Positions 5,108-42,005 are shown, counted from the first letter of the stretch. The stretch is 64,000 nucleotides of DNA from Deltaproteobacteria bacterium (GCA_037442505.1 JBBIPZ010000007.1:3758-67757), one strand, 5' to 3'. Notes: generated from the letters alone by a model not told the origin. Translations and numbers: made by a program.

Positions 5108-5161
5108 TGATAGTGGCAAGTTCACATCGCCAGACCATTGGTGTTTAATTTATAAATTTTT

Positions 5162-5220: not shown

Positions 5221-5910
5221 TTCTTTTTTGCCAGGTTCAGTTCTATCGAATGAACAGGTTGTAAACTCTTTGTGTTCCTTGGTGAGTTCTATAAGTCTTG
5301 TCTCTATGTCTCTAAGTTGATCCATCAGGCATTGCAGCACCTGTGCCTCTGGATCTGGCAACTTCTCGTCAACTTTAACACGAGCTTTTCCGCGATATGT
5401 AATTCTACCTGGCACACCAACCACAGTTGAATCATCTGGAACATCTTTAACAACAACAGAGCCCGAACCAATCAGGCAGTTGTTCCCAATCACTATTGGT
5501 CCTAAAACTTTTGCGCCCGCGCCTATAACCACATTATTACCAATGGTAGGATGTCTTTTACCCTTTTTCCATGATGTACCACCTAAAGTTACCCCATGAT
5601 AAAGTGTGACGTCGTCGCCTACTTCTGCTGTTTCTCCAATCACCACACCCATACCGTGATCAATGAAAAACCTTTTGCCAATCTTTGCTCCGGGATGTAT
5701 CTCAATTCCTGTTAGAAATCGAGCGATGTGAGAGAGAAATCTTGCTAAAAGTCTGAAATTTTTTCCCCACAAATAGTGGTTAACTCTATGAAAAAGTAGT
5801 GCGTGAAAGCCCGGGTAACATAGAATAATCTCAATTACACTTCTTGCAGCCGGGTCTCTTTCAAAAACCGAGTTGATGTCCTCTTTAATAGTTTTCAAAA
5901 ATTTGAACAT
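5218..5910 (-). CDS. cysE: Serine O-acetyltransferase
   Basis: SATase N-terminal helical domain followed by a hexapeptide-repeat left-handed beta-helix ([38 protein letters not shown]). Confidence 0.85.
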
Positions 5911-5918
5911 AATATTAG

Positions 5919-7559: not shown

Positions 7560-7599
7560 TTAGCGATATTATATCATTAATTATTAGAAAGGTTAAAGA

Positions 7600-7628
7600 G
7601 AAAAAGGGCTTTTTCAAGCCCTTTTCAA
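7600..7628 (-). terminator. Hairpin terminator after the permease gene
   Basis: AAAAGGGC-tttttcaa-GCCCTTTT stem-loop flanked by A/T runs. Confidence 0.4.
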
Positions 7629-7631
7629 ATG

Positions 7632-10992: not shown

Positions 10993-12429
10993 TTAGGCAA
11001 TTTGATTTAAATTATAGCGTTCTTTAAGGATGTTTTGTAAAGTTTTAATTGTCTTTAAACCTATTTTAAGGCGTTCCATTTCGATATGATTCAGGTCATC
11101 AGGTGATATGTAGTTTGATGGGTCTCTGCCATTAGCAATATCCATTAATTGAGATTTAAGACGTATATGTAGAAAAAAATTGAAACTCGTATCTATTTCA
11201 AGCAGTTCCTCGTCTGACAAAATTCTTAGCTCCATAAGTTTATTGATCTTTGCCTTTGTGCCGCTATCAATGATTCCAGCATCCAATGCAAGTACCTTTA
11301 CTCCTTCTGTTATGGGGAATATTCCAGCCTTTTTAACATCAAACCTGCCTTTATAATTGCCAGTTTTTTCAACTTTTATATTGCCAAAAAATGTAATTGG
11401 TGGGGGAAAGCGAAGTACATTTTTAGCCATGTGTGCAAGAAACAGTTTATTTTCATTTACTAAATTAAGAACAGTTTGTTTGAGTGATTTTTCAAAAGAA
11501 GGATTACCATAAATTGTTCTCAAATCAGAGAACATACTGTAGTTTAGAGTATTTTCTGGTTCAGGAATTTTTATCCACTTAGACAAAGAAATCTTCCACT
11601 GTGATAGGCTTTTTCGCCAGCTTGCATTTTTTGCCATAATGCCACCAGAACATTCAGGAATACCAATATAGATTAAGTTATCAATGATTTTTTGCGAAAA
11701 ATCCTCAATAAGCTTAACATCTCTATCGTCAAGTGCATCGTTATATACAATTGCGTTATCTTGGTCAGTTTTCAGAGTTTGCTCCATTCTTCCTTCACTC
11801 CCCAAAACAAGAAAAGAAAAGCCCTCTGGCAATTCAAGATAATTATCTTTGATAGTAATTGCAATCGTCTGCAAAATAAGAGAATCATTTATATGAGATA
11901 TAAAACGAATGATATCATGAGTTCTTATGCCAGATCTTAACATATACTGCAATAAGCTCGTAGATTTTTTGTTTATTTTTCGAAGATCGTCAAGATTATT
12001 TGCGTATTCTAACTCTCTAATAAAATAAAGAGGGGTGTTGGTTTGAAACTTTATGATATCTGTGTCTGTTATAATTCCAGAAAGCTGTCCCATCTCGTTT
12101 ACAACAACAAGCCGGTGGATGTTTTGTTTAGTCATTCTGTAAATTGCTTCAAAGATATAATCTTCTTCTCTAATCGTCATGACTGGAAAAGACATTATTT
12201 CAGAAATTTTTATGTTAGTGGAACGCCTTTCAGCGATAACCTTGTTTCTAAAATCTCTATCTGTCACTACACCAACGGGTATCCTGTCTTCACAGACCAC
12301 AATGCCAGAGACTTTTTTTTCCTTCATATATTTTGCGACTTCATCTAAGGATGCGGATGGAGAACATGTATACACATCTTTTTTGCTTAACTCTTTTACT
12401 TTAACGAAGAATAAGGATGTATCATTCAT
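10993..12429 (-). CDS. CBS-pair protein with a DUF294 putative nucleotidyltransferase domain
   Basis: Two CBS motifs at the N-terminus, then GSEGRMEQTLKTDQDNAIVY nucleotidyltransferase-like motif and a DUF294 C-terminal region. Confidence 0.6.
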   Translation of the reverse strand: MNDTSLFFVKVKELSKKDVYTCSPSASLDEVAKYMKEKKVSGIVVCEDRIPVGVVTDRDFRNKVIAERRSTNIKISEIMSFPVMTIREEDYIFEAIYRMTKQNIHRLVVVNEMGQLSGIITDTDIIKFQTNTPLYFIRELEYANNLDDLRKINKKSTSLLQYMLRSGIRTHDIIRFISHINDSLILQTIAITIKDNYLELPEGFSFLVLGSEGRMEQTLKTDQDNAIVYNDALDDRDVKLIEDFSQKIIDNLIYIGIPECSGGIMAKNASWRKSLSQWKISLSKWIKIPEPENTLNYSMFSDLRTIYGNPSFEKSLKQTVLNLVNENKLFLAHMAKNVLRFPPPITFFGNIKVEKTGNYKGRFDVKKAGIFPITEGVKVLALDAGIIDSGTKAKINKLMELRILSDEELLEIDTSFNFFLHIRLKSQLMDIANGRDPSNYISPDDLNHIEMERLKIGLKTIKTLQNILKERYNLNQIA

Positions 12430-15603: not shown

Positions 15604-16164
15604 ATGACGGTTTACGAAGCAATTTTAAAACGAAGAAGTGTTAGAAAATTTAAACAGAAAGATATTCCTGATGATGTGCTTTTAAAAATGCTTGAAGCAG
15701 CAAGATTTGCTCCGAGTTGGGCAAATACCCAGTGTTGGCGTTTTATTGTAGTTAAAGAACGCGAAACAAAGGAGAAAATTTCAGATGCCTTTCCGCCAAG
15801 AAATCCCGGTTTTTCAAGTCTTATTAGTGCCCCAGTTGTTATTGTTGCATTTGCTGAAAAGTTTAAGTCTGGTTTTTACAAGGGAGAGGCATCTACAAAC
15901 AAAGGTGAATACTGGTATATGTTTGATGTCGCATTGGCATTGCAGAATATGGTGTTAACTGCATGGGAAGATGGTATTGGTTCTGTCTATCTGGGTCTTT
16001 TTGATGCTCAAAAAGTTGCCAATACGTTGAACATACCAGTAGATTATGAGGTGGTTGCGATACTGCCTTTTGGTTATCCTGACGAAGAACCTAAATGTCC
16101 ACCAAGGAAAAATCTGGAAGAGATTGTGTTCTATGAAAACTATTCCGAGTCAAAGGTAGAATAA
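15604..16164 (+). CDS. Nitroreductase-family NAD(P)H oxidoreductase
   Basis: MTVYEAILKRRSVRKF start with SD AAGGAGGGG. The ORF track shows a longer frame from 15556. Confidence 0.75.
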   Translation: MTVYEAILKRRSVRKFKQKDIPDDVLLKMLEAARFAPSWANTQCWRFIVVKERETKEKISDAFPPRNPGFSSLISAPVVIVAFAEKFKSGFYKGEASTNKGEYWYMFDVALALQNMVLTAWEDGIGSVYLGLFDAQKVANTLNIPVDYEVVAILPFGYPDEEPKCPPRKNLEEIVFYENYSESKVE

Positions 16165-16835
16165 ATAAGTTTTTTTGCCAATAAATCTGCAAAATTGCGA
16201 TCGTAGGGAACTTGCTTTAATATAAAGGCAGGTTCTCTTTCAAGTTCAATAATTAAGTATTTTGCAAGGTTATCAGAATTGTCAGGAACACCTACGCTAC
16301 CGGGATTTAACACATAGCCCTCTCTTGTCTCGATAATCATTGGCTGATGGGTGTGCCCGCAAACTATTATATCAACCATATTTTCGTTAAGTAGATTTTC
16401 TAAATAAAATGTCGAAGTGTTGAAATATATATAATTAGCAATCCCTTTTGGACTTCCGTGAACAAGCAACATCCTTTTCTTTTCAAAATGTAGCTCTATC
16501 TTTTGTGGTAGCCCTGATAAAAAATCTTTTACTTTTTCTGAAAGATTTTGTCTTGTCCACTGAAACACCTTTCTTCGTTCCTCTGGTAGATCTTTCTTTA
16601 GATACAGGATGCCTTCTTTTTCCTCTTTGCAAAGACAGGCTTTATCATAATTTCCAAGAATTGTGATAATGTTTTTGTCTATAATAAACTCAATAACCTC
16701 TTCAATCTGGGGGTAGTATCCAACAAGGTCTCCAAGCGCATAAATCTGGGACACACCTTCACTCTTTATGTCGTTATAAACTGCTTCTAAGGCGATAAAG
16801 TTTGCATGAATATCAGAAACTATTGCAATTTTCAT
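16140..16835 (-). CDS. Calcineurin-like metallophosphoesterase (YfcE/MJ0936 family)
   Basis: MKIAIVSDIHAN...GDLVGY...GHTH motifs. Overlaps the convergent nitroreductase gene by 25 nt. Confidence 0.7.
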   Translation of the reverse strand: MKIAIVSDIHANFIALEAVYNDIKSEGVSQIYALGDLVGYYPQIEEVIEFIIDKNIITILGNYDKACLCKEEKEGILYLKKDLPEERRKVFQWTRQNLSEKVKDFLSGLPQKIELHFEKKRMLLVHGSPKGIANYIYFNTSTFYLENLLNENMVDIIVCGHTHQPMIIETREGYVLNPGSVGVPDNSDNLAKYLIIELEREPAFILKQVPYDRNFADLLAKKLIYSTFDSE

Positions 16836-20678: not shown

Positions 20679-21656
20679 ATGTTATCGTATATAGAAAAGT
20701 TAAAAAATCAGGTGTTAGAAGGTTATGAGATAGCTCAATTAGAAGCGCTAAACTTATTTGAAGAGGGAATTAAATCACCATTTTATCTTTTGGCTGCAGC
20801 ATCAGATATAAGAGAACGATTCAAAGGCAAAAAGATAAATCTCTGTGGCATTGTTAATGCAAAGTCGGGTAGATGTGCGGAAAACTGCAAATTTTGCGCT
20901 CAATCATCTTACTATAAAACAGATGCGCCTTCTTATCCATTAATTTCTGCAGATGATATAATCTCACAGGCAAAGGCAGCAAAAGACAACGGAGCGCATA
21001 TGTTTGGTATCGTTACAAGTGGAACTAAAATTAGTAGTGACGCCGAGTGGGACGAAATTTTTATCGCTGTAAAAGGTATAAAAGAGGCTGGGATTTTACC
21101 CTGTGCTTCGCTTGGTATTCTTGACTATGATAAGGCTCTTGCTTTGAAAGAATCAGGGCTTTTTAGATATCACCATAATTTAGAAACCTCAAAATCTTTT
21201 TTCCCAAACATTTGTTCAACACATGATTATGAAGAAGATGTTAAAACCGTTGAAGCAGCAAAGGCAGCCGGGTTATCCACGTGTTGTGGTGGAATAATAG
21301 GTTTAGGCGAGACGATAGAACATCGGATAGAATTGGCAATCCTGCTTAGAGAACTTGATGTTGATTCTGTGCCGATAAACATACTCAATCCCATTGTTGG
21401 CACACCACTTGAAAATGCAAAAGCTTTATCTCCTATTGAAATTTTATGTAGTATCGCTATTTTTCGTTTTATTTTGCCCCAAAAAGATATTAAACTATGT
21501 GGCGGTAAGGAAAAAAATTTAAGACAGCTTTTGCCGCTTGGTATTATTGCAGGCTGTAACTCATTAATGACTGGCAACTATCTTACTACTGCAGGGAGGG
21601 ATACCGCTCTGGATTACGAAATGATTGCTGACTTAGGGCTTAAGGCTGTTATTTAA
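20679..21656 (+). CDS. bioB: Biotin synthase
   Basis: Radical SAM CxxxCxxC (CAENCKFC) and the BioB family pattern. Confidence 0.9.
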   Translation: MLSYIEKLKNQVLEGYEIAQLEALNLFEEGIKSPFYLLAAASDIRERFKGKKINLCGIVNAKSGRCAENCKFCAQSSYYKTDAPSYPLISADDIISQAKAAKDNGAHMFGIVTSGTKISSDAEWDEIFIAVKGIKEAGILPCASLGILDYDKALALKESGLFRYHHNLETSKSFFPNICSTHDYEEDVKTVEAAKAAGLSTCCGGIIGLGETIEHRIELAILLRELDVDSVPINILNPIVGTPLENAKALSPIEILCSIAIFRFILPQKDIKLCGGKEKNLRQLLPLGIIAGCNSLMTGNYLTTAGRDTALDYEMIADLGLKAVI

Positions 21657-21668
21657 TGGGGGCAAATT

Positions 21669-23513
21669 ATGATGGCAAAAGGAACGCACAAGATTCTTTA
21701 TCTTGGTGCAGATGATGTTTTTTTTAAAGAGCTTCAAGATATTTTTGTAAGTGAACCTGTTTTTTTGGAACATTTTTTAAGAGAGAGTCTTTCTTTTGCT
21801 ATCCTGCCACAAAAGGATTACTCTGTCATAATCGTTGACGCAGATTATAAAACCCCACTCACCTTTATAGAAACGCTTAGAGTGATATACAAAGATTTCT
21901 TTAAACCTTACATAATGCTTCTTGCTAAATTGGAACAGGTAAAATCTCTAAAAAATTTGATAAACTTTAAAAACTATCCTGATGATATCTGCCTTAAAAA
22001 CATCGATAAAAAATGTATTGCAAACCAGATACTTTTTGGTTGTTCGAGTTCTATATGCACAAAAGATGCTTTATGTAGCGCTGGGGAAATACAAAAAGGC
22101 GATTTTAAAGATTTATCTTATGGTAGTTTGTTGTTCAAGCTTTATAAGGAAAAATTTACTGGGAGACTGATAATAGACAGCTTTTCTGATAGGGCTGTTT
22201 TTTCATTTTTAAATGGGGAGCCTGTTGATATTAAATTCAACAGGATACTATTTACATTGGGAAGGATATTGCTAAGGCGTGGCCTTTTAGATGAAGAGAC
22301 ATATTTAAAATCTATGGAGTATATGAATGAAAAAAATATTAGGCATGGCGATGCATTGGTTGAGATGGGTATACTTTCAACATCAACAATAGTTGATATG
22401 ATTGAAGAGCAGTATAAAGAAAAATTGATGTTTTTCTTCTCAAAATTTAATGGCAATTTTTTGCTTGTCCAGAGTGATGTTGAGTTTACTATTCACCCGA
22501 AAGTGGACGTCTTTAATCTAATTTATGCAGGCGTAATGCAGTATTGTTCTGCTAAATATCTTACAGAGAAGTTTTTACTATATAAAAATAAATTCGTTGC
22601 ATTAACTGAAAACTTTACACTCTTTAATAAAAAACTCCCATTTACGGAGAATGAGCATCTACTGTTATCAAGATTAGAGTCTGCACCAGAATTGATAGAA
22701 GTTTTTGAAAGCACGTCACTCGATTTAACTCATATTTTAAAACTTTTCGAGATAATCACAATTTGTGAGATGGCAAAATTTGCTGATACTAAAGCAGATG
22801 CATTGGAGATTACTAAATGGACACAGCCAAAGATGATAGAATTAAAAAATAAGATTAATGCTGATTATATGAGTCTTAAAGAAAAAAACTATTATGAAGT
22901 GTTAGGATTAAAACAGGATTGTGATAACTCGGAGATAAAAAAACGTTACTTTGAGAAGGTGAAAAATTACCATCCTGATACTTACAATCATTTGGGATTG
23001 GACAAGGATTTGATGTCTAAGGTAAATGAAATGTTCCAGTTGATACAGATAGCTTATCAAACTCTCTCAAATCAAGAATCAAGAAAAAATTATGATGCTA
23101 TAATATCTTCAACTTTTGTGAACGAAGCGATGAAGAAGAGTAGTGACATTATCAATGCAGAGATTGCATTTAAAAAAGGAGAGTTCTTATTTAAGAAAAG
23201 AAATTATAAGGATGCAGAAGGCTACTTTAGAACAGCTGTAAATCTTTATTGGAAAGAACCAGAATATCTAATTAGCCTTGCTGTTACCCTGATGTTTATT
23301 GATAATAAAAAAATAGAAAAGCTGGAAGAAGCGAAATCTCTGCTCGAAAAGGCTATTTATATTAACCCTTATTATGACAAGTCTTATCATTATCTTGGTA
23401 TTTTTTATAAACTTACCGGAAATACAGCTGAGGCAAAGGCTTGCTTAAAAAAGGCGGTTGAGCTAAACCCTTCAAACAAAGAAGCGATCATGGAGTTAAA
23501 AAGCCTTGAGTAG
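21669..23513 (+). CDS. Multi-domain protein with a degenerate receiver-like N-terminus, a DUF4388-like domain, a J domain and C-terminal TPR repeats
   Basis: KILYLGADD...VIIVDADYKT (REC-like), LLFKLYKEKFTGRLII...NGEPVDI (DUF4388-like), YYEVLGL...KKRYF...HPD (J domain with HPD), TPR-like C-terminus. Sits between bioB and bioF. Confidence 0.6.
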   Translation: MMAKGTHKILYLGADDVFFKELQDIFVSEPVFLEHFLRESLSFAILPQKDYSVIIVDADYKTPLTFIETLRVIYKDFFKPYIMLLAKLEQVKSLKNLINFKNYPDDICLKNIDKKCIANQILFGCSSSICTKDALCSAGEIQKGDFKDLSYGSLLFKLYKEKFTGRLIIDSFSDRAVFSFLNGEPVDIKFNRILFTLGRILLRRGLLDEETYLKSMEYMNEKNIRHGDALVEMGILSTSTIVDMIEEQYKEKLMFFFSKFNGNFLLVQSDVEFTIHPKVDVFNLIYAGVMQYCSAKYLTEKFLLYKNKFVALTENFTLFNKKLPFTENEHLLLSRLESAPELIEVFESTSLDLTHILKLFEIITICEMAKFADTKADALEITKWTQPKMIELKNKINADYMSLKEKNYYEVLGLKQDCDNSEIKKRYFEKVKNYHPDTYNHLGLDKDLMSKVNEMFQLIQIAYQTLSNQESRKNYDAIISSTFVNEAMKKSSDIINAEIAFKKGEFLFKKRNYKDAEGYFRTAVNLYWKEPEYLISLAVTLMFIDNKKIEKLEEAKSLLEKAIYINPYYDKSYHYLGIFYKLTGNTAEAKACLKKAVELNPSNKEAIMELKSLE

Positions 23514-24675
23514 TTTTGAAATTCAGATACGAGAAGAACTTGAAAGTTTATCTGCTGATGGGCTTTTGCGAACTGTTGATAGTATTGAAACAGGGTGTTT
23601 TTCTCAAATCACGATTGATGGGCAAACATTTCTAAATTTTTGCTCAAATAATTATCTTGCTCTAAATGGACATCCTTATATCGCAAATGCAATGAAAAAA
23701 GCAATTGATCTTTGGGGAACATCCTGTTCTGCATCAAGATTAATTGTTGGCAGTATTAAACTTTTTGAAGAGGCTGAAGAGCGCTTAGCTGGTTTTAAAA
23801 GAAAAGAAGCTGCTTTAATCTTCCCTTCAGGGTATCAAGCCAATGTCTCGGTTATTGCTACCCTGGCATCGTCTGAAGATAACATATTTAGTGATCAGCT
23901 AAATCATGCAAGCATTATTGATGGTTGTAAGTTAAGCAGGGCAAAATTATCTATTTATAGACATAGAGATGTAAACAACTTAGAAGATTTGTTAAAAAAT
24001 TCAAAATCAAGAAGAAAGATTATCGTAACAGATGGTGTCTTTAGTATGGATGGTGATATTGCTCCTCTTAAAGAGATAAGCGAGCTTGCAGACAGGTACG
24101 ATGCAGTAGTTATTGTTGATGATGCTCATGCAACAGGTGTTTTGGGAAAGGACGGTAAAGGCACATTAGAACTGTTTGACTTACAACAAAAGAAAAACAT
24201 AATGGTGTTGGGTACAGGAGGGAAGGCCTTAGGCGTTGGTGGAGCATTTTTTTGTTGTCCTGACTATATAAAGCAGTATCTGATCAATAAATCGAGAGGT
24301 TTTATTTACACTACTGCCACTGTTCCTGCAATTCCCGCCGGGCTTATGGCTTCCTTGGATGTAATAGTTAATGAACCAGATAGACGAAAAAGACTACATG
24401 AGCTGTCTAATTATTTTCATCAGAGATTAAAGGCAGAAGGATTTATGACTTCCAAAACACCTTCCCATATATTGCCACTAATTATTGGAGACAATCAAAA
24501 GGTAATAGATATGGCATTGATTCTAAGAAAAAACGGCATATATGTTAAACCTATTAGATTTCCTACCGTCCCAAAGGGCACCGAGCGAATAAGATTTAGC
24601 CTGACCTCACATCACACAAAAGAAGATGTTGATAAGGTTATTGACATAATAAAATCATATATTTTATTGCGTTAA
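23506..24675 (+). CDS. bioF: 8-amino-7-oxononanoate synthase (PLP-dependent)
   Basis: AONS family pattern, PLP lysine region (SMDGDIAPL). TTG start overlapping the upstream stop. Confidence 0.8.
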   Translation: MSSFEIQIREELESLSADGLLRTVDSIETGCFSQITIDGQTFLNFCSNNYLALNGHPYIANAMKKAIDLWGTSCSASRLIVGSIKLFEEAEERLAGFKRKEAALIFPSGYQANVSVIATLASSEDNIFSDQLNHASIIDGCKLSRAKLSIYRHRDVNNLEDLLKNSKSRRKIIVTDGVFSMDGDIAPLKEISELADRYDAVVIVDDAHATGVLGKDGKGTLELFDLQQKKNIMVLGTGGKALGVGGAFFCCPDYIKQYLINKSRGFIYTTATVPAIPAGLMASLDVIVNEPDRRKRLHELSNYFHQRLKAEGFMTSKTPSHILPLIIGDNQKVIDMALILRKNGIYVKPIRFPTVPKGTERIRFSLTSHHTKEDVDKVIDIIKSYILLR

Positions 24676-24686
24676 AAGAGGTTGTT

Positions 24687-26030
24687 ATGAATATTAGAGA
24701 GAAAGATAAAGCGTATCTATGGCATCCATTTACGCAAATGAGAGATTGGTTGAGTGAAGAACCACTTGTTATCGAAAGAGGTGTGGGTAACTATCTTATT
24801 GATGATAAAGGAAATAAATATCTCGATGGCGTTTCTTCATTATGGGTAACTGTTCATGGACATAATCATCCTAAGATTAATGAGGCGATAAAAAATCAAC
24901 TTGACAAAATTGCACATTCTACAATGCTTGGGCTTACCAATCCCAAAGCGGTAGATTTGGCGGAAAAACTTATAAGTATAGTGCCTATGGGATTGAGAAG
25001 GGTGTTTTATTCCGACAACGGTTCCACATCAGTTGAGATTGCTTTAAAGATGGCTTTTCAGTATTTTCAACACAAAGGTAAGTTGTCCCGTACTAAATTT
25101 GCGTATCTAAGTAATGCCTATCATGGAGATACTATTGGAGCTGTGAGCGTAGGTGGGATAGAACTTTTTCACAGCACATTTAAGCCCTTACTTTTTGAAG
25201 GTTTCAAATTGCCATCACCTTATTGTTACCGTTGTGAGCTTGGTAAAGATAGAGAAAATTGCGGAAAAGACTGTTTGAAGAAAACTAAAGAGATACTTGA
25301 GAAAAACAGAGAAAAAATTGCAGCATTAATTATGGAGCCTCTTGTGCAGGGTGCTGCTGGAATGATAACACAGCCAGAAGGGTATCTAAGAGAAATAGCG
25401 GATATTTGTAAAGAAAACAATATACTATTGATACTCGATGAAGTTGCTACAGGCTTTGGTAGAACTGGCAAGATGTTTGCCTGCCAACACGAAGATGTTA
25501 CGCCCGATTTCCTTTGTGTTTCTAAAGGTATAACAGGCGGTTATCTGCCACTTGCAGCTACCATAACGACAGAAGATGTCTTCAATGCGTTTTTAGGGGA
25601 ATATAGCGAGTTTAAGACATTTTTTCATGGACATACATATACTGGAAACCCTTTAGCGTGCGCCGCAGCTATAGCAAATTTAGAGTTGTTCAACACTGAA
25701 CACACTTTAGAAAAAATGCAGGATAACATATCGTTTTTTGCGAAAAAGTTGGAGATGTTTAAGTCATATAAATATGTTGGTGAAGTGAGACAGCGCGGAT
25801 ATATGGTTGGCATAGAGATCGTAAAAGACAAACGAACAAAAGAGATGTTTCCTGTAGAAGACAAAGTTTGTATAAAAATCTCTGCAAAGGCAAGGGATTT
25901 TAATATTATCACGCGCCCCTTGGGTAATGTTCTTGTAATGATGCCACCGCTTGGTATTACAAAACAGGAGATAGAAATTTTATGCGAAGGTATCTACAAT
26001 AGTATGCTTATGATTCTGGAGAAAAGATGA
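24687..26030 (+). CDS. bioA: Adenosylmethionine-8-amino-7-oxononanoate aminotransferase
   Basis: WHPFTQM N-terminus and class III aminotransferase motifs. Confidence 0.9.
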   Translation: MNIREKDKAYLWHPFTQMRDWLSEEPLVIERGVGNYLIDDKGNKYLDGVSSLWVTVHGHNHPKINEAIKNQLDKIAHSTMLGLTNPKAVDLAEKLISIVPMGLRRVFYSDNGSTSVEIALKMAFQYFQHKGKLSRTKFAYLSNAYHGDTIGAVSVGGIELFHSTFKPLLFEGFKLPSPYCYRCELGKDRENCGKDCLKKTKEILEKNREKIAALIMEPLVQGAAGMITQPEGYLREIADICKENNILLILDEVATGFGRTGKMFACQHEDVTPDFLCVSKGITGGYLPLAATITTEDVFNAFLGEYSEFKTFFHGHTYTGNPLACAAAIANLELFNTEHTLEKMQDNISFFAKKLEMFKSYKYVGEVRQRGYMVGIEIVKDKRTKEMFPVEDKVCIKISAKARDFNIITRPLGNVLVMMPPLGITKQEIEILCEGIYNSMLMILEKR

Positions 26031-26674
26031 GATACTTCGTTACTGGAACTGATACTGGTGTCGGCAAAACGTATGTTTTATCGTTAATTCTCAAATTTTT
26101 TATTGCAAACGGTTATTATCCATCTGTGATGAAACCTATAGAGACAGGATGTAGTACATATAAAGGCGAACTTATTCCAGAAGATGGTTTGCAGCTTTCT
26201 GATATTGTTAAAATGAGCAACCAGTTAGATAAGGTTGTGCCTTATAGATTTGAGACACCAGTAGCACCTTATGTTGCATCACTTTTAGAAAATAAAGAGA
26301 TAGATTTAAATAACATAAAACAGCTTTCTGATAATCTCAAAGAGCCTTTATTTGTAGAAGGAGCTGGTGGACTAATGGTACCTATCAAGAGAAATTTTTT
26401 TATGATAGACCTTGTAAACTATTTAAATCTTGAAGTGATATTTATTTCTCCACTTCGCTTAGGAACAATAAATCAGACGCTGCTGAATATAGAAGCAATG
26501 GAAAGGCGTAACCTTAAGATAAAAGGCATAATTCTAAACGATACAGACGGTATAGTAACACCAGCAACAAGAACAAACCCTGAGGTATTAAAAGAGCTTC
26601 AACCTTATCCTGTAATTGCGGTTGTGCCTTACAAATGTTTAGCTTTACCTGATTTTTCTGCATTGTTGCGGTAA
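26027..26674 (+). CDS. bioD: Dethiobiotin synthetase
   Basis: P-loop GTDTGVGKT. ATGA overlap with bioA. Confidence 0.8.
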   Translation: MRYFVTGTDTGVGKTYVLSLILKFFIANGYYPSVMKPIETGCSTYKGELIPEDGLQLSDIVKMSNQLDKVVPYRFETPVAPYVASLLENKEIDLNNIKQLSDNLKEPLFVEGAGGLMVPIKRNFFMIDLVNYLNLEVIFISPLRLGTINQTLLNIEAMERRNLKIKGIILNDTDGIVTPATRTNPEVLKELQPYPVIAVVPYKCLALPDFSALLR

Positions 26675-26727: not shown

Positions 26728-26756
26728 TTGACAATTCATCTTTTTTTGCTATTAAT
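26728..26756 (+). promoter_or_regulatory. Sigma70-like promoter giving a leaderless transcript for the CODH cluster
   Basis: TTGACA at 26728-26733, then 16-17 nt to TATTAA/ATTAAT. The ATG at 26763 lies about 7 nt after the -10 and has no SD. Confidence 0.35.
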
Positions 26757-26762
26757 AACATT

Positions 26763-27971
26763 ATGCATCTGGTAATAATTGGTTTAAGTGCCGCAGGTCT
26801 TACTGCTTTGGATACACTTGTAAAACATGCTAAGGACTGTAAAATAACAGTAGTTACAGAAGAACGATATGAACCATATTCACGCTGTCTTCTAACTAAC
26901 TATCTTGGCACAGAAATTGGACTTGGTAACCTTTTTATTTCTAACTCATCATTGTATCCTGCTAATGTAAAATGTATTTTTGGTAAAAAAGTAGTTAGTA
27001 TTGATAAAGATTCTAAAAAGCTGATACTGGGCGATGGTAGTTTTATTTTTTACGATAAGTTATTACTTGCTACTGGTGCTGAACCCATTAAACCAGCTTA
27101 TGCACTTAAAGCTAAAAGAGTGTTTACGTTAAGACGCATTCAGGATGTTAGCAAAATTTGCGAAAAACTCAACGATAAGGCGATAGTATTGGGTGGTGGA
27201 TTTGTAGGGATAAAAACCGCTTATGGGTTGCTTGAAAGGGATGTTAGGGTAAATCTTGTTATTTCATCTGCATATCCGTTATCAATGATACTTGATGAAG
27301 AATTGGGAAAGATTGTCGAAAGAGAGTTAAAGGATCTTGGAATATCGGTGTTTACAAATAGCGATGTTGTTGAAATTGCAAAAAAGCCCAATGGCATTTA
27401 TGCTGTTTTATCGTCAAACAAAACATTAGAGAGCGATGTGGTCATTGTGGGAAAAGGCGTCACGCCAAGAATAGAACTTGCAGAATCTGCTGGTGTTGCG
27501 ATTAATAAAGGAATCCTTGTAAACAGCTTTTTAGAGACATCAGTAAAAGATATCTTTGCTGCAGGGGATTGTGTTGAGGCATATGATATCACAAGGAAAG
27601 ATAATTTTATTAACGCAATCTGGCCAAATGCTGTAGAACAGGGCTATTATGCCGCAATGAATATGTTAGGTAACTGCTTGAGTTATTCAGGCAGCATAGG
27701 TTGTAACAGTTTAAAGACTAAAACGTTTCATTTAATTACTGCAGGGATTCTAAAAGGTAAGGATGTAAAGACATATAGACATTATGTGGCATCAAAAAAA
27801 CAGCTTCGTGAAGTTGCTTTTATTGATGACATACCAGTAGGAATGGCATTTTTAAATTCATTTGAAGACGCAGGTGTGCTAGTTAATTTGATTAAAAGGG
27901 GAGAGCCTATCAATTGTTTTCCCGAACAGTTAGTTAACGGAGAATATAATTTACTGCAAAACTTATTTTAG
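26763..27971 (+). CDS. FAD-dependent pyridine nucleotide-disulfide-family NAD(P)H oxidoreductase
   Basis: Two Rossmann dinucleotide motifs (VIIGLSAAG; VLGGGFVG) and a possible redox Cys (YSRC). Confidence 0.7.
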   Translation: MHLVIIGLSAAGLTALDTLVKHAKDCKITVVTEERYEPYSRCLLTNYLGTEIGLGNLFISNSSLYPANVKCIFGKKVVSIDKDSKKLILGDGSFIFYDKLLLATGAEPIKPAYALKAKRVFTLRRIQDVSKICEKLNDKAIVLGGGFVGIKTAYGLLERDVRVNLVISSAYPLSMILDEELGKIVERELKDLGISVFTNSDVVEIAKKPNGIYAVLSSNKTLESDVVIVGKGVTPRIELAESAGVAINKGILVNSFLETSVKDIFAAGDCVEAYDITRKDNFINAIWPNAVEQGYYAAMNMLGNCLSYSGSIGCNSLKTKTFHLITAGILKGKDVKTYRHYVASKKQLREVAFIDDIPVGMAFLNSFEDAGVLVNLIKRGEPINCFPEQLVNGEYNLLQNLF

Positions 27972-27973
27972 AG

Positions 27974-28582
27974 GTGATTTTTATGAAAACAGTTATAGTT
28001 AAACCCGAACGTTGTTTAGGTTGTTTGCAGTGCAGATTTGCATGTGCAGTGGCACATTCAAGGTCGAAGGATAGCTACACAGCTATCCGAGAAACACCTT
28101 TATCAAAACCAAGAATTCATATCGGACTTTTTAAAAACGCATCTCCCTTCCCAAACAAGTGTCGTCATTGTGATCCGGCACCATGTGAGAGGGCTTGTAT
28201 AACAAGGGCAATTTATCGTAACGAAGAGAAAAATATTGTCCTTATAGATCCTACACGCTGTATCAATTGTGGTATGTGTGCAATGGCATGCCCATTTGGT
28301 GTTGTGAGGTATCATGTCCAATTTAACAACAAGCTTGCTGCGCATAAGTGTGATCAATGTATTTTGAGACAAAGCGAAGGAAATGTGCCAGCTTGTGTAG
28401 AATCCTGCAAGGTAGGAGCGCTCGTATTTGGTGAAATTAATCATGAAATGGATAAAGAAACTGCTAAAGTTGCAGAACTTGTATGGTTAGGCATCCGTGA
28501 TAAAACTGAAAAAAGTGATGATGGCTTTAACACTTTAAAAGATTATAAAGCAAAATTAATTGAGATTGCCAGAAGGAGGTAG
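27974..28582 (+). CDS. CooF-like polyferredoxin (several 4Fe-4S clusters)
   Basis: Repeated CxxCxxC...CP motifs (CLGCLQCRFAC; CRHCDPAPC; CINCGMCAMACP; CDQC...C). Confidence 0.7.
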   Translation: MIFMKTVIVKPERCLGCLQCRFACAVAHSRSKDSYTAIRETPLSKPRIHIGLFKNASPFPNKCRHCDPAPCERACITRAIYRNEEKNIVLIDPTRCINCGMCAMACPFGVVRYHVQFNNKLAAHKCDQCILRQSEGNVPACVESCKVGALVFGEINHEMDKETAKVAELVWLGIRDKTEKSDDGFNTLKDYKAKLIEIARRR

Positions 28583-28587
28583 AGCAC

Positions 28588-30456
28588 ATGAAAGACTATA
28601 AAGATTACAGTATATGTAGTGATGCTCAACTGATGCTTAAAAAGGCAGAAACGGATAATGTAGAAACAGTCTGGGACAGACACAAAAAACAACAACCTCA
28701 TTGTGGATATTGTGAATTGGGGCTTTCTTGTAGAATATGTGCTATGGGACCGTGTAGAATTGACCCTTTTGGCGAAGGTCCACAAAAAGGTGTCTGTGGT
28801 GCAGATGCTGATATAATGGTTTCAAGAAACCTTGCGAGGATGATAGCTGCGGGTTCGGCATCTCATTCTGACCATGGAAGAGATCTTGTAGAAGTGTTAT
28901 ATAAAATTGGTGAAGGTAAGACTTCAGGTTATACAATTAAAGACGCCCAAAAGTTGAAAACGGTAGCTAAAGAGTATGGCATTGACGTGTCTGGTAAAGA
29001 TGAAAAAAGTATTGCAAAAGAATTGGCGTTAGCAATGATGGAAGATTATGGGATGAAGAAAGAAGCGATTACTTTTATTTCGAGAGCTCCTGCGAAGAGG
29101 GTAGAACTCTGGAGAAAATTACGCGTTCTTCCGAGGGGAATAGATAGGGAAACATCTGAAATGATGCATCGAACACATATGGGGGTGGATAATGATTATG
29201 TGTCTATCCTTTTACAGGCAGTGAGAAATAGTCTTTCTGATGGATATGGCGGTTCAATGATAGGAACAGAAGTTTCTGATATCATTTTTGGTACTCCCAG
29301 ACCCGCTTTTTCTTCTGTAAATTTGGGCGTGCTAAAAGAAGATATGGTTAATATACTTGTCCATGGACATAATCCCGTTGTTTCAGAGATGGTTTTTCTT
29401 GCTGTTAACGACCCTGCTATGATTGATGAAGCAAAGAAGGTAGGTGCAAATGGTATTAATCTTGCTGGACTTTGTTGTACAGGCAACGAATTAATGATGA
29501 GAAAGCAGGTGCCGATGGCTGGTAATCATTTGATGACGGAGCTAACAATGGTTACAGGTGTTGTTGAGGCAATAATTGTTGACTATCAATGTATAATGCC
29601 AGCACTTGGAGATGTTGCAAAGTGTTATCACACAAAGCTCTTTTCTACATCTGATAAAGCTAAATTTCCTTTTATGGAACATATTGAGTTTAATCCTGAA
29701 AATGCAAAAGAACAGGCTTATAAAATTGTTAGCATTGCTATACAAAACTTTAAAAATAGACGAAAAGATCGCATTAACATACCTGTTAGTCCTGTAAAAT
29801 CAATGACTGGTTTTTCAGTAGAGTCTATCGTAGAGGCTTTGGGTGGTTCTTTAACACCGTTGATAGAAGCAATCAAAGCAGGCAAGATTAAAGGGGCAGT
29901 TGGTGTAGTTGGTTGTAACAATCCAAAAGTGAAACAGGACTATGGGCATGTTGAGCTTATTAAGAAACTGATTGCAAATGATATTCTTGTTTTGACAACT
30001 GGTTGTGCAAATGTCGCAGCAGGCAAGGCAGGATTACAGTTGCCAGAGGCTAAAGAAATAGCTGGATCAGGTTTAAAAGAAATATGTGGTGCACTGGGAA
30101 TCCCCCCTTCTTTACACGTTGGTTCTTGTGTAGATAATTCTCGTATTCTTGTTATAGCATGTGCATTGGCAAATGCCTTAGGTGTTGATGTCTCTGATCT
30201 GCCGCTTGCTGGTGCTGCTCCAGAGTGGTATTCAGAGAAGGCTGTGGCGATAGGTTTTTATGTGATGGCTACTGGAATATTTACAGTTTTAGGAGTAATG
30301 CCGCCAATACTTGGCAGTAAAAATATTACTAATCTTGCTATCAATGGACTAAAGGATGTTTTTGGAGCAGCATTTGCTGTTGAGCCAGACCCATTGAAAG
30401 CTGCGGATTTAATTATTGAACATATAAACCAGAAAAGGAAAAAGTTAGGAATCTAA
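28588..30456 (+). CDS. cooS: Anaerobic Ni-dependent carbon monoxide dehydrogenase catalytic subunit
   Basis: 622 aa. N-terminal [20 protein letters not shown] cluster-D/B motif; C-cluster ligand motifs GVVGCNN and [10 protein letters not shown]. Not the shorter hybrid-cluster protein. Confidence 0.85.
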
Positions 30457-30478
30457 AGATATAAATTGGAGGTTATTT

Positions 30479-31090
30479 ATGAAGGTTTTGATACCGTTTT
30501 ATTCTATGTATGGACATGTGTACAGATTGGCAGAAGCAGTGGCAGAAGGTGTTAGAGATGTTGAGGGAGCAGAAGCTATTTTACGACAGGTGCCTGAAAC
30601 ACTTCCTTTTGAAGTGCTTCAAAAAATGAACGCAGTCGAAGCAAAAAAGAGATTTGAACATATTCCTGTTTGTACTGTTGAAGAGTTAGCAGAAGCAGAC
30701 GCAATAATTTTTGGAACTCCTACAAGATTTGGGAATATGTGTGGGCAGATGAGACAGTTTTTAGATGCTACAGGACAGTTATGGCAGAAAGGTGCATTGG
30801 TTGGAAAAGTAGGAAGCGTTTTTGTCTCCACTGCGACACAGCATGGTGGACAGGAATCAACCATATTAAGTTTTCACATAACCTTGTTGCATCATGGAAT
30901 GGTGATTGTTGGTTTGCCGTATGCTTTTCAAGCACAGATGCGAATAGATGAAGTGATTGGTTGTTCACCTTATGGTGCATCTACAATTGCTGGTGGGATG
31001 GGAGAACGTTTGCCAGGTGAAACAGAACTTTTAGGAGCTAAGTTTCAGGGAAAACATGTTGCTACAATTGCTAAAAAACTGTTGAAGTAA
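30479..31090 (+). CDS. wrbA: NAD(P)H:quinone oxidoreductase, flavodoxin-like (WrbA family)
   Basis: [24 protein letters not shown] matches the WrbA N-terminus. Confidence 0.8.
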
Positions 31091-31156: not shown

Positions 31157-32383
31157 TTGATGCGATATTTAAAAGTGCTAAGTATTTTCTTTTGTGCTTT
31201 TATGGTAGTTGGTTGTGTGAGTTCAGGCACATATAAGGCTTGTTTATCCGATGTTGATGCCCTAAAAGGTGACAAAGCGAAGTTAGAGGATTTACTAAAA
31301 ACGAAAGACGCACAGTTGGAAGCATTGAGGGCTGAAAAGTCAAAATTAGAGGTAGATATTGCCGATAAATATAAGCAGAATAATCTACTTAAAGAAAAGA
31401 TAACCAATTTAGAAAAAGATATAAAAAATAAGGAAACTGAAAAAAAGGCTCTCGAAGAAAAAAATGCTAAACTTGAAAAAGATTACAATGAGTTGGTTAC
31501 AGAAAACTCTGACTTAAGAAAAACGTTATCTTCAAGCAAAGATGAGCTTACAAAAAATGTGTCGGAGCTTCAAACTAAGCTAAAAGAGAGAGAATCAAGA
31601 GTTTCTTTGTTAGAAGAGGATGTGCTCACTAAGAGCGGACAGATCGCAACGTTAAAGGATGAAATCAGAAAGAATAAAGAACAGATAACCGCATTGGTAG
31701 CAAGTATTAAGGAAAAAGAGGAACAAAAATCTTCTTTAGAAAAACAACTTCTTGAAAAAGACGAGCAGATAAAAAAAATGGAAAAAGATCTGGCTTCAAA
31801 AGATATTATGATAAATGACCTAAAAAATGAGATAAAAGCCCTTTCAACAGATAGAGCTAAAGTATTGGAGGAAAAAGAAAGGGCAATAGCTGAGCTTAAA
31901 AAGACTCACGACAAATTAATTGTAGAACTAAGCGAAGAGATTAAAAAAGGTGAAATAGAGGTTACTCAGTTGCGAGACAAACTCACTTTACAGATGGTTG
32001 AAAAAATTCTTTTTGATTCTGGCAGCGCAGAAATAAAAGGTAGTGGCAAAAAGGTGCTTGACCGTGTTGCAGAAATTTTGAAAAAGGTTAACGATAGACA
32101 GATCAGGATAGAAGGACACACAGACAACAAACCCATTGGCGCTAAGATTGCAAAGAAGTTTCCAACAAACTGGGAGCTTTCTACCGCAAGGGCCACAAAT
32201 GTGGTGAGATATCTTAAAGAAAAAGGTGGTATTGATCCCAGATACTTGAGTGCAGCTGGGTATGCGGAGTATAAACCAGTTGATACTAATGATACTGAAG
32301 AAGGTAGGGCTAAAAATAGAAGAATAGAAATCGTTCTGATACCCATTGAGTTAGAGACAACCAAGGTAATGACGACAAAATAG
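31157..32383 (+). CDS. Lipoprotein with a long coiled-coil stalk and a C-terminal OmpA/MotB peptidoglycan-binding domain
   Basis: Lipobox VVGC, about 250 aa of heptad-rich KE-rich sequence, and OmpA_C motifs (GHTDN...NWELSTARA...NRRIEI). Confidence 0.75.
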   Translation: MMRYLKVLSIFFCAFMVVGCVSSGTYKACLSDVDALKGDKAKLEDLLKTKDAQLEALRAEKSKLEVDIADKYKQNNLLKEKITNLEKDIKNKETEKKALEEKNAKLEKDYNELVTENSDLRKTLSSSKDELTKNVSELQTKLKERESRVSLLEEDVLTKSGQIATLKDEIRKNKEQITALVASIKEKEEQKSSLEKQLLEKDEQIKKMEKDLASKDIMINDLKNEIKALSTDRAKVLEEKERAIAELKKTHDKLIVELSEEIKKGEIEVTQLRDKLTLQMVEKILFDSGSAEIKGSGKKVLDRVAEILKKVNDRQIRIEGHTDNKPIGAKIAKKFPTNWELSTARATNVVRYLKEKGGIDPRYLSAAGYAEYKPVDTNDTEEGRAKNRRIEIVLIPIELETTKVMTTK

Positions 32384-32392
32384 CTTTTCTTA

Positions 32393-32425
32393 AAGAGGAC
32401 GTGAAATATCGTCCTCTCTTTTACT
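32393..32425 (+). terminator. Intrinsic terminator after the OmpA-like gene
   Basis: AAGAGGACG-tgaaatat-CGTCCTCT followed by a CTTTTACT T-rich tail. Confidence 0.5.
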
Positions 32426-32438
32426 CATTAACTTAAAA

Positions 32439-33314
32439 ATGTCAGAAAAATTATCAAATTTTTTTATTGCAATTATCGTTATAGCGATGGTGATATGGGG
32501 AGGCAGTTGGGTTTCTGCAAAGGCTATCGCCGGTAGTTATGACGCCAATATATTAACCTTCTTGAGGTTTTTCGTCAGTGCAATTTCGTTTATACCAATC
32601 ATCGTCTCAATGAGGCTAAATATTTTGTTAGATAAACACAGTTTAAAGTATGTTGTCATTGGTTCAGTTTCTATGGGGCTTTATTTCTATGTTTTTTTTA
32701 AAGGGCTCGAAACTGGGTATGCCAGTGTAGCAGGTGTTTTTGTAACATCATTAATTCCTATATTTACATTGTTGCTATCAAAAATTTTTTTTAAAAGCAA
32801 ATTTAGAACAATTGATTATATCGGCATTTCATTAGGGTTTATAGGTGGCGCTGTTATTATGAAGTTCTGGCAGTTAAATTTTGTTAATATTGTTAAATCT
32901 GGAAACATTTATTTTCTTTTTTGTCCCGTTTTATGGGCTATAGTTACAATATGTAGCGAAAAGTCTGCTGAAAAAATATCTCCGATAATCTTTAGTTTCT
33001 ACTGTTATTTAACTTCATCTTTGATATTTTTCATTTTATCAATTGATAAGCAGATGATATCCGTTTGTAATGGTGGTTTAAAATTATGGTTAAATATAAT
33101 CTATCTTTCTATAATATCGAGCACTTTAGCAACCACTGCATATTTTTATGCTACAAAGAAAATATCTTCTTATCGTGCAAGTTCTTTTGCTTTTATTGTT
33201 CCTGTTAGTAGCCTGATACTCAGTATATTGTTTCTTGGAGAAAAGCCTGGTGCAACAACCATATCTGGTGGCTTAATTTCGATTCTGGCAACCTATATTA
33301 TAAACTCAAAATAA
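32439..33314 (+). CDS. EamA/DMT-family transporter
   Basis: 291 aa, ten-TM duplicated EamA pattern. Confidence 0.7.
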   Translation: MSEKLSNFFIAIIVIAMVIWGGSWVSAKAIAGSYDANILTFLRFFVSAISFIPIIVSMRLNILLDKHSLKYVVIGSVSMGLYFYVFFKGLETGYASVAGVFVTSLIPIFTLLLSKIFFKSKFRTIDYIGISLGFIGGAVIMKFWQLNFVNIVKSGNIYFLFCPVLWAIVTICSEKSAEKISPIIFSFYCYLTSSLIFFILSIDKQMISVCNGGLKLWLNIIYLSIISSTLATTAYFYATKKISSYRASSFAFIVPVSSLILSILFLGEKPGATTISGGLISILATYIINSK

Positions 33315-39533: not shown

Positions 39534-42005
39534 TTGGATAAGCTTAGTTTCGCACAAAACGAGATAAAAGTTAATATCGAAGACGAAGTTAAACAATCGT
39601 ACTTAGATTATGCGATGAGTGTTATAGTGGGTAGAGCATTACCTGATGCGCGTGATGGTCTAAAACCTGTACATAGAAGGATTTTGTATGCAATGTACGA
39701 CATGGGCAACGAGTGGAATAAACCTTACAAAAAATCAGCCCGAATAGTTGGAGATGTTATAGGTAAGTATCACCCACATGGCGATGCTGCTGTATATGAT
39801 GCAATTGTCAGGATGGCACAAGATTTTTCTTTGAGAATGCCATTGGTGGACGGGCAGGGAAACTTTGGTTCTATTGACGGCGATCCACCAGCAGCAATGC
39901 GTTATACTGAAATTAGAATGAAGCAGCTTGCTGGTGAACTTTTAGCAGATATAGATAAAGATACGGTTGATTTTATTCCAAACTATGATGGTTCTTTATC
40001 CGAACCAGTTGTTTTGCCAGCAAAGTTGCCTAACCTGCTAATAAATGGTTCTTCAGGTATTGCAGTAGGTATGGCGACAAACATTCCGACTCACAATTTA
40101 AGAGAATGCATAAATGCTGTCATTTATATGATAGACAATCCCGATTGTGAAATTGAAGATATTATTAGAATTATACCGGGTCCAGATTTTCCAACCGGTG
40201 CATATATTCACGGAAGGGACGAGATTGTCAAGGCTTATAAGACGGGAAAAGGCATAATTAGGATACGAGGCAAGGCAGAAGAAGAGTTGTTAAAGGGTGA
40301 TAAGCACGCAATTGTAATCACTGAAATACCTTATATGGTAAACAAAGCGGAAATGATAAAGAATATAGCTGAGCTTGTCAGGGATAAAAAATTAGAAGGT
40401 ATTTCAGAAATAAGAGATGAATCTGATAAAGATGGAATAAGGGTTGTAATAGAGTTAAAAAGGGATGCAAATGGACAGGTGTTACTTAACAATTTGTATA
40501 AATTAACAAGGTTAGAGGAATCTTTTGCTATAAACATGGTGGCGATAGTAAAAGGTCAGCCTCGCTTGCTTAACTTAAAAGAAATTCTGGAAATATTCAT
40601 TTCACATAGAAAAGAAGTGGTCATACGTAGAACAAAATTTGAACTTGCGGATGCGAGAAAAAGGGCACATATTTTAGAAGGACTTAAGAAGGCGATTGAT
40701 AACTTAGACCTCACAATTAAACTAATTAGAGAGTCAAAGTCACCAAAAGAGGCTAAAGAGTCTTTGATCCTTAACCTTGATATAACTGACGTACAGGCAC
40801 AAGCTATTATAGATATGAAGCTGGCAAGACTTACAGGGCTTGAGAGAGAAAAGATAGTCGAAGAGTTTATAAATATTATGAAGCTTATAGATGAATTGGA
40901 GTCTATTTTAAGAGAAGAAAGAAAGGTTTTTGATATTATCAAGAAAGAGTTAGAAGAGATAAAAAATAAGTATGGCGATGAAAGAAGAACAGAAATCGTT
41001 TCTTCTGGTGTAGATATTAACAAGGAAGACCTTATCGAAAGAGAAGACGTTGTAATCACACTTACTCATAAGGGCTTTATAAAAAGAACCCCGGTAACCG
41101 AATACAGCACACAGAAAAGAGGTGGTAAAGGTAAAACAGCAATAAATTTAAGAGAAAAAGATTTTATAATAGATCTCTTTATTTCTTCAACTCACGATTA
41201 TGTTCTGGCATTTACTTCTTTAGGCCGTATGTATTCTATAAAGGCTTATGAGTTTCCGGAGGCTGGCAGGAATGCCTATGGAAAAATTATTACTAACTTT
41301 TTCCAGTTGAAAGAAAACGAAAAAGTTACAAACTTAATAGCTGTCAGTGATTTTGACGTTGATAAAGACCTGTTTTTTGCAACTGAAAAGGGTGTTGTAA
41401 AAAGAACACAGTTGAGTTTTTTTAAGAACATCAGAAAAACGGGTATCAACGCTATTAACCTGCCAGAAGATGATTTTCTCATATCTGCAAATATCGTTGA
41501 TAGTGAAGACCATGTGATACTTTCTTCACGAAAAGGCAAAAGTATAAGATTTCCTATTAGTGATGTTAGAAGGGTAGGAAGGGCAGCGTATGGTGTTACA
41601 GGAATGAGTTTAGAGAAGGACGATAAGGTGGTGGCAATGGATGTGATTAAAGAAAAAACGGGAAGTTTATTAACAGTTACTACCTTGGGTTATGGCAAAC
41701 AAACAGAAATTAGCGAGTATCGTTTACAAAGTAGAGGCGGCAAAGGTATATTTACCATTAAGCTTAGCCAGAAAATTGGGGAAGTGCTGGGTGTCTTAAA
41801 AACCAATCCAGATGATGAAGTGCTTTTGATTTCAAGTTCGGGCAATATGATAAGGCTAGCCGTAAAAAATATTCCTGAATATTCGAGACAGAGTCAGGGT
41901 GTAAGGCTAATTAATCTTGCAGAAGGTGAGCAGATTGTAGCAGTTGCAAAATTTGTAGAAAAGGAGAATGGAGATGAACAAGAGCCAGAAAGTACAATAC
42001 TATAA
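39534..42005 (+). CDS. gyrA: DNA gyrase subunit A (TTG start)
   Basis: [17 protein letters not shown]...GLKPVHRR, active-site Tyr region, C-terminal beta-pinwheel repeats. 823 aa. No gyrB lies adjacent. Confidence 0.95.

Follow-up and report, generated by a model that had tools for sequence, protein, structure and literature searches.

A deltaproteobacterial FNOR-CooF-CooS cassette predicted to encode a soluble CO:NAD(P)+ oxidoreductase, with WrbA as a probable bystander

What does a nickel-iron carbon monoxide dehydrogenase (CODH) do when its gene stands apart from those of acetyl-CoA synthase and hydrogenase, and which of the genes beside it belong to its pathway? These questions are raised by a 64,000-nucleotide (nt) stretch of DNA from a Deltaproteobacteria bacterium (GCA_037442505.1, JBBIPZ010000007.1:3758-67757), here called the window, in which four genes on the plus strand encode, in this order, an FAD-dependent NAD(P) oxidoreductase (FNOR; 26763-27971, 402 aa), a CooF-type polyferredoxin (27983-28582, 199 aa), the Ni,Fe-CODH catalytic subunit CooS (28588-30456, 622 aa) and the type IV NAD(P)H:quinone oxidoreductase WrbA (30479-31090, 203 aa), with intergenic gaps of 11, 5 and 22 nt. 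We consider it fairly probable (roughly 60%, for the reading as a whole) that positions 26728-30456 form a self-contained three-gene cassette with its own promoter, which would be expressed from a leaderless mRNA and encode a soluble CO:NAD(P)+ oxidoreductase, WrbA being no component of it.

An initial annotation had described the four genes as a likely non-energy-conserving cluster that lacks acs and ech/coo hydrogenase genes, resembles published clusters of CODH with an FAD/NAD oxidoreductase, and begins with a leaderless gene. The order of the genes and their common strand are borne out by the map of open reading frames (ORFs), by Pfam and by NCBIfam, the scores of the latter being read against curated cutoffs. 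Pfam scanning of all ORFs in the 64-kb window with a length of 110 aa or more, covering 26 kb upstream and 33 kb downstream of the cluster, detected no acetyl-CoA synthase (ACS) or hydrogenase, in agreement with that description, and no CO sensor or regulator with a CRP/FNR-type (CooA), LytTR (RcoM) or Rrf2 domain; tblastn with Desulfovibrionaceae CooC gave no match in the window at E<=1e-3. The likeness to published clusters also stands, and FNOR-CooF-CooS is a new example of the already described FNOR-type CODH context (PMC4703632, PMC6344411, PMC11338639, PMC13240472). Clusters of this type are among the commonest unexplained contexts of anaerobic CODHs, and as of 2019 no such FNOR had been characterised biochemically (PMC6344411). 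Our findings overturn no current view.

CooS (Prismane domain, E=7.7e-184) scores 721.2 bits against the equivalog model TIGR01702 (cutoff 478). Its nearest solved structure is that of the Desulfovibrio vulgaris enzyme (DvCODH; 6b6v, E=5e-240, 801 bits), followed by a 632-aa CODH (6t7j, 775 bits), whereas the clade F enzymes R. rubrum CODH and ChCODH-II reach 534-544 bits, about 260 below 6b6v. The C-cluster ligands and acid-base residues are present (H261, C296/C297, C335, C443, C473 and C514, with H96 and K551 among the motif residues), as are the B-cluster cysteines C48, C51, C56 and C70, and by alignment offset the residues coincide with H266, C301/C302, C340, C519 and K556 of DvCODH (PMC6168284). 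The N-terminus reads C39-GY-C42-ELGLS-C48 (C-x2-C-x5-C), the type III D-cluster motif by which Inoue et al. 2019 define structural group E-2 (PMC6344411), and the corresponding CxxC motif of DvCODH, itself an E-2 enzyme, binds a [2Fe-2S] cluster (PMC6168284). DvCODH shares the C-, B- and D-cluster ligands with the window CooS, the CxxC D-cluster motif included. Among the 84 sequences compared, the type III motif was found in every related CooS at least 61% identical to that of the window, whereas those at most 60% identical mostly have type II (Cx7CC). Judged by these motifs, the protein is a monofunctional, motif-complete Ni-CODH, and by motif type and nearest solved relatives it is assigned to the D. 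vulgaris type, group E-2; some E-2 CODHs coexist with an FNOR (Inoue et al.; PMC6344411). The CooS matches at four of the loci compared (L070, L073, L077 and L078) are truncated, which may reflect a frameshift, a pseudogene or an assembly error.

The unit formed by the first three genes was recognized by comparing relatives. Taking one genome per species gave 80 loci, which were scored by tblastn with the window proteins. The order FNOR-CooF-CooS was found in 24 of the 27 distinct loci whose CooS is at least 68% identical, and two of the three without the full trio are cut by a contig end. The hosts of the trio loci are Nitrospirota/Thermodesulfovibrionales, Dissulfurispiraceae, Smithellaceae/Syntrophus and unclassified metagenome-assembled genomes (MAGs), so that the order is constant across Nitrospirota, Thermodesulfobacteriota and the poorly sampled lineage of the window. 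Loci of the Solidesulfovibrio/Desulfovibrio type (CooS 63-64% identical) have the same trio order with cooC 5' of FNOR. In most trio loci the gene 3' of cooS is convergent, or variable and unrelated, and cooC lies within 10 kb in only about four of them. The window CooS is 78-82% identical to proteins from Nitrospirota and Thermodesulfobacteriota MAGs, whereas the window GyrA (39534-42005) is 57-59% identical to its nearest relatives (Thermodesulfobacteriota and "Deltaproteobacteria" MAGs) beyond a small uncultured group; the difference suggests that the cassette is either very conserved or horizontally exchanged.

Two further features of the trio loci may be mentioned. In some (L027, L028, L030, L019 and L023) the order is cooC-FNOR-cooF-cooS with cooC immediately upstream. 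In L084 a convergent gene of about 300 aa, of outer-membrane type and annotated as Phenol_MetA_deg (9920-10810, minus strand), comes right after cooS, and convergent 300-aa ORFs occupy the matching position in L020 and L002, as judged by position and length; these genes hint at a larger ancestral context common to the three cassettes.

FNOR (Pyr_redox_2, E=8e-53) is a flavoprotein with two dinucleotide-binding domains. Among NCBIfam models it comes closest to PadH (214 bits, cutoff 475), which is the FAD subunit of the NADH-dependent phenylglyoxylate dehydrogenase, and its best solved relative is AorC (8c0z_E, E=1.9e-38), with which it aligns over residues 3-391, the C-terminal domain included. 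NADH oxidases (Nox) and CoA-disulfide reductases (CoADR) align with it only up to residue 330-340 or so. Membership of either of these two families was considered and rejected, as FNOR scores 163 bits against the CoADR hidden Markov model (HMM; cutoff 579) and 134 bits against that of NADH oxidase (cutoff 600), and neither enzyme aligns with its C-terminal domain.

One residue of FNOR nevertheless recalls those enzymes and bears on a different reading, in which electrons from CO would reduce O2, H2O2 or quinones in oxidative-stress defence, either through Cys42 of FNOR or through NAD(P)H and WrbA. C42, which neighbours the FAD-binding Arg, corresponds in position to the redox-active Cys that NADH oxidase and CoADR possess, and most FNOR orthologues at least 46% identical retain it; however, neither AorC nor the CODH-linked FNORs of Desulfovibrio type have it, and the C-terminal domain is AorC/PadH-like, not Nox-like. 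Enzymes of the NADH:rubredoxin oxidoreductase type (3klj and 1xhc) are among the solved relatives of FNOR, yet the cluster has no gene for a rubrerythrin, rubredoxin or peroxidase next to it. In this the window differs from the CODH-IV cluster of C. hydrogenoformans (CHY0735-0738), which likewise contains CooS, CooF and an FNOR homologue but also rubrerythrin, and for which, in the summary given in PMC4703632, a role in feeding CO electrons into detoxifying reactive oxygen species (ROS) was proposed; in the window the sole neighbour with a link to stress is WrbA, whose gene is not conserved together with the module. A part of CODH-FNOR in ROS defence is a hypothesis in the literature (PMC4703632, PMC6344411, PMC13240472). 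It gains some weight from the CxxC D-cluster motif that CooS has in common with DvCODH, an enzyme reported to tolerate oxygen unusually well (PMC6168284, PMC9093221), from a clostridial CODH-CooF-FNOR cluster that is reportedly O2-induced (as cited in PMC6344411), from the probable co-transcription of wrbA in the window, and from a photolyase gene in the window that hints at life near light and oxygen. The linkage with WrbA, moreover, is limited to one narrow lineage and appears to be born of rearrangement (see below), and we regard stress defence as an unlikely purpose of the cassette.

FNORs of the Nitrospirota type (L001, L005, L007-L012, L014-L018, L025 and others) carry PYCRC and GDCC, giving four Cys near the flavin site, where the window protein has PYSRC and GDCV; the four Cys might mean an extra redox centre or a disulfide. 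In L006, FNOR is split into two matches, which may be due to a frameshift, a pseudogene or an assembly error.

The CooF ORF (Fer4_11, E=2e-20) opens at GTG 27974, but translation likely starts at ATG 27983, because a GAGGTGA Shine-Dalgarno (SD) sequence precedes this codon and the resulting 199 aa equal the length of the orthologues. The protein has 16 Cys in four [4Fe-4S] cluster motifs, and its relatives in PDB are the polyferredoxin subunit 9mqx_E, the filament-forming HycB4/HycB3 of the hydrogen-dependent carbon dioxide reductase (HDCR; 7qv7) and AorA (8c0z_C, E=9e-14). Its C-terminus is extended by about 50 aa (residues ~150-199; 28430-28579) with the pattern MDxET..LVYLGIR..YKxxLxEIxRR. 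This extension is conserved in all FNOR-linked trios with CooF at least 58% identical, except that in L021 the tblastn match ends at residue 153, and it is missing or different in CooFs of other contexts.

The extension raises the possibility of a polyferredoxin nanowire like those of AorABC and HDCR, in which CooF would polymerize via C-terminal helices, with CooS dimers attached and one FNOR as a cap. FNOR resembles AorC and CooF resembles AorA, HycB3 and HycB4, whose filaments depend on C-terminal helices (PMC10413684), and for another CODH cluster, of the Bfu type, a nanowire has been put forward (PMC12318220). The extension, however, has no significant similarity to the AorA and HycB C-termini (the AorA alignment ends at residue 149, and a second segment of HycB4 has an i-Evalue of 7.7), and a simple decorated filament is harder to picture with CooS, an obligate dimer. 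Proposed from sequence alone, such an assembly seems rather improbable; it would be a structural refinement compatible with a soluble CO:NAD(P)+ oxidoreductase and not a contradiction of it.

Gene content, cofactor motifs and the homology to AorC and AorA can be read directly from the window, and from them we infer the electron path, the nucleotide and the physiological role of the predicted CO:NAD(P)+ oxidoreductase. CO would be oxidised at the Ni-Fe-S C-cluster of the D. vulgaris-type CooS dimer, and the electrons would exit via the B-cluster and then the CxxC-type D-cluster, run along the four [4Fe-4S] clusters of CooF and reach the FAD of FNOR, where NAD(P)+ would be reduced. This path is proposed because FNOR and CooF are homologous to AorC and AorA. 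In AorABC of Aromatoleum aromaticum (8c0z) the [4Fe-4S] chain of AorA leads to the FAD of AorC, with cluster FS4 9.5 A away, and NAD+ is reduced there (PMC10413684); the two solved homologues give a concrete structural model of CO-to-NAD(P)+ flow. In AorABC, in PadH/PadI and in the window alike, an FAD subunit and a four-cluster ferredoxin tie a metal-cluster enzyme to NAD+, but the catalytic subunit of AorABC is a tungstopterin enzyme where the window has a Ni-CODH, the C-terminus of the window CooF is unrelated to the AorA helix, and FNOR differs in possessing Cys42 and in having no acidic NAD-specificity residue. The module thus resembles AorABC in its predicted working and is not a member of that system. 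The predicted path also agrees with observations on Geobacter sulfurreducens, whose CooS-CooC-CooF-FNOR cluster goes with growth on CO with fumarate and whose extracts reduce NADP+ in a CO-dependent manner (PMC4703632). Any NAD(P)H that is not passed on to quinones would serve the needs of the cell in respiration, biosynthesis or stress defence.

As for energy, the drop from CO/CO2 to NAD(P)+ offers no coupling site in soluble proteins of this kind, and WrbA is likewise non-electrogenic. The description of the cluster as non-energy-conserving can accordingly be kept for the step from CODH to NAD(P)+. It is overstated for the cell, since NAD(P)H can feed respiration and the Geobacter module, the one physiological case on record for this type, goes with CO-respiratory growth (PMC4703632), and we consider it only partly supported.

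The initial annotation had counted WrbA as a member of the cluster, and this is where we depart from it. WrbA itself is unambiguous by HMM (TIGR01755, 311.2 bits, cutoff 132.5; NF002999, 321.8 bits, cutoff 141). Its linkage to CODH is another matter: tblastn found no WrbA in the 8 kb around cooS at any of the 81 other CooS loci, and wrbA follows cooS only in L082 and L083, two contigs with CooS 97% and 91% identical to that of the window. Since these contigs share the whole surrounding synteny with the window, their wrbA linkage is not independent evidence. The window cluster is flanked 5' by bioB-(DnaJ/TPR)-bioF-bioA-bioD and 3' by the genes ompA-like, eamA, yjbQ, yqeY, dnaG, rpoD, hpf, rapZ and gyrA. 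In L085 (CooS 87% identical) the order is bioFAD (+), cooS-cooF-FNOR (-) and wrbA-ompA-yjbQ-yqeY-dnaG (+), i.e. the cassette (4133-7823), promoter included, occupies the same site between bioD and wrbA but is inverted relative to the window, and wrbA, with the trio divergent, has a promoter-like region and leader of its own. The trio of L084 (CooS 87% identical) stands beside the bio operon without wrbA, and L086 and L087 (WrbA 86% identical) have wrbA without any CODH; the L086 block reads wrbA-(440-aa gene)-yjbQ-yqeY-dnaG-rpoD-hpf-rapZ, and the L087 contig ends just past wrbA. The synteny of these four loci reveals the ancestral arrangement and indicates that wrbA belongs to a housekeeping block. 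The next gene of this block in the window encodes an OmpA/MotB-like coiled-coil protein (31160-32383, plus strand; OmpA domain, E=5.8e-22), whose counterpart follows wrbA also in L082, L083 and L085, whereas in L086 the slot is filled by the 440-aa gene, which has no Pfam match.

By this synteny WrbA is a bystander brought by rearrangement and lies outside the conserved module. An inversion in the window lineage would have set the cassette head-to-tail before wrbA; a search of the window for inverted repeats flanking the cassette, as its possible cause, yielded nothing beyond short matches at chance level. Accessory-looking neighbours such as WrbA can therefore be rearrangement artefacts and are not to be read as parts of a pathway.

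This does not keep wrbA from being transcribed with the cassette. No terminator-like hairpin was found in the intergenic gaps between 26674 and 32383, that of cooS-wrbA included, and the longer cooS-wrbA spacer of L083 has no significant structure (z = -0.34). The first such hairpin on the plus strand 3' of the cassette lies at 32394-32417 (an 8-bp stem, 5 of whose pairs are GC, followed by a T-rich tail); other matches on this strand fall in coding sequence, at 28271-28292 (cooF) and 32604-32616 (eamA). As the 22-nt spacer, which contains the GGAGGT SD sequence of wrbA, has no terminator, read-through from the cassette promoter is likely; wrbA is thus probably co-transcribed with the cassette in the window, the transcript may end with the OmpA-like gene, and some CO-derived NAD(P)H could pass to quinones.

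Read more boldly, all four genes would form a CO-to-quinone feeder running from CooS through CooF, FNOR, NAD(P)H and WrbA to menaquinone, with energy conserved only at quinol-dependent terminal reductases. The four genes are co-directional and closely spaced without a hairpin between them, L082 and L083 preserve this layout, the HMM scores mark WrbA as a genuine NAD(P)H:quinone oxidoreductase, Geobacter uses the module in CO respiration (PMC4703632), and an NrfA-like cytochrome c552 is encoded in the window. What speaks against the feeder is the comparison just described, in which wrbA comes with a promoter-like region and 5' leader of its own, CODH is divergent (L085) or not nearby (L086 and L087), the other CooS loci are without WrbA and the two that have it are not independent; it can hardly be called a likely function. 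A combination of the two more elaborate ideas, namely a nanowire CODH with a two-helix CooF extension and a single FNOR cap, joined to wrbA by the inversion so as to give a soluble CO-to-quinone route, is equally doubtful.

In the preferred reading, that of a three-gene cassette, the promoter is part of the unit. A sigma-70-type promoter (26728-26755, plus strand) consists of a -35 box TTGACA (26728-26733), a 16-nt spacer and a -10 box TATTAA (26750-26755), and the FNOR ATG at 26763 lies 7 nt after the latter. No SD sequence was found at the FNOR start, whereas cooF, cooS, wrbA and ompA have anti-SD matches of 6-7 nt. The ORF cannot open upstream of 26763, and the FAD-binding Rossmann motif begins at residue 3. 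A strict consensus scan skipped this promoter, as its -10 box ends in A. The same geometry (TTGACA, 16-17 nt, TAnnnN, 6-8 nt, ATG, no SD) is present in six other loci (L082, L083, L002, L020, L013 and the inverted cassette of L085), the FNORs of some of which are only about 50% identical, whereas Nitrospirota-type loci carry AAGGAGG leaders instead. Upstream of the -35 box no conserved operator was found among the window, L082, L083 and L084, only the promoter hexamers being conserved. These features uphold the proposal of a leaderless first gene: the FNOR mRNA most likely starts at the ATG or within a base or two of it, and, as its retention in the inverted copy indicates, the putative promoter travels with the cassette. 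Several other genes of the window (5919-7559, 10993-12429, 16140-16835 and 50964-52496, all on the minus strand) likewise have no SD sequence, and in them the ATG follows 7-8 nt after a TATAAT-like box; leaderless initiation thus appears to be habitual in this genome and no speciality of the CODH operon. Compact, promoter-bearing and leaderless, with an orientation that flips between close relatives, the cassette behaves as a unit of inheritance.

Several points weigh against the reading of the cassette as a leaderless CO:NAD(P)+ oxidoreductase without WrbA. FNOR falls below the cutoff of every curated NCBIfam family, and its retained C42 means that its chemistry may differ from simple NAD(P)+ reduction. 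The end of its second Rossmann beta-strand reads VISSAYPLS, without the acidic residue of AorC (VVEMGDR), and its preference between NAD and NADP may therefore lean to NADP. DvCODH must have CooC to become activatable (PMC6168284), and with no cooC in the 64 kb the activity of the window CooS hinges on a gene outside the window. The promoter pattern by itself is not significant, as one was found in the AT-rich window against 0.57 expected. The tight wrbA linkage in three related contigs (the window, L082 and L083) could be functional. Finally, the function of the cassette in this organism is predicted from its genes alone.

Compared with the known FNOR-type clusters, i.e. GSU2095-2098 of G. 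sulfurreducens, the cooS-cooF-FNOR clusters of Clostridium and the class described by Inoue et al. 2019, the window shares a single operon in which a monofunctional CooS is joined by a CooF with four clusters and a COG1251-type oxidoreductase, ACS and energy-converting hydrogenase (ECH) being absent, together with the same predicted path from CO to NAD(P)+ (PMC4703632, PMC6344411, PMC11338639). The gene order differs, being FNOR-cooF-cooS in the window as against cooS-(cooC)-cooF-FNOR in the known clusters, and, unlike these, the window has a leaderless first gene and no cooC, RcoM or Rrf2 regulator nearby. Its CooS belongs to group E-2, whereas that of Geobacter is E-1 and those of clostridia are C-1/C-2, and wrbA downstream of an FNOR-type module occurs only in the window lineage. 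With respect to DvCODH the accessory genes are reversed: the D. vulgaris enzyme has a dedicated CooC maturase (PMC6168284), and in the Desulfovibrionaceae loci nearest to this type cooC comes directly after cooS and neither FNOR nor CooF is adjacent, whereas the window CooS is accompanied by FNOR and CooF.

Outside the cluster, Rfam and tRNA scans of the window found a single tRNA-Phe, distant from it. The biotin operon (20679-26674) is split between bioB and bioF by a gene for a 614-aa DnaJ/TPR/DUF4388 (PatA_N) protein (21669-23513), an insertion also seen in the relatives L082, L084 and L085. The window also holds genes for an NrfA-like cytochrome c552 (49182-50762), a DNA photolyase (52723-54078) and a heavy-metal P-type ATPase with two HMA domains (54131-56533), of which the photolyase is surprising in a presumed anaerobe.

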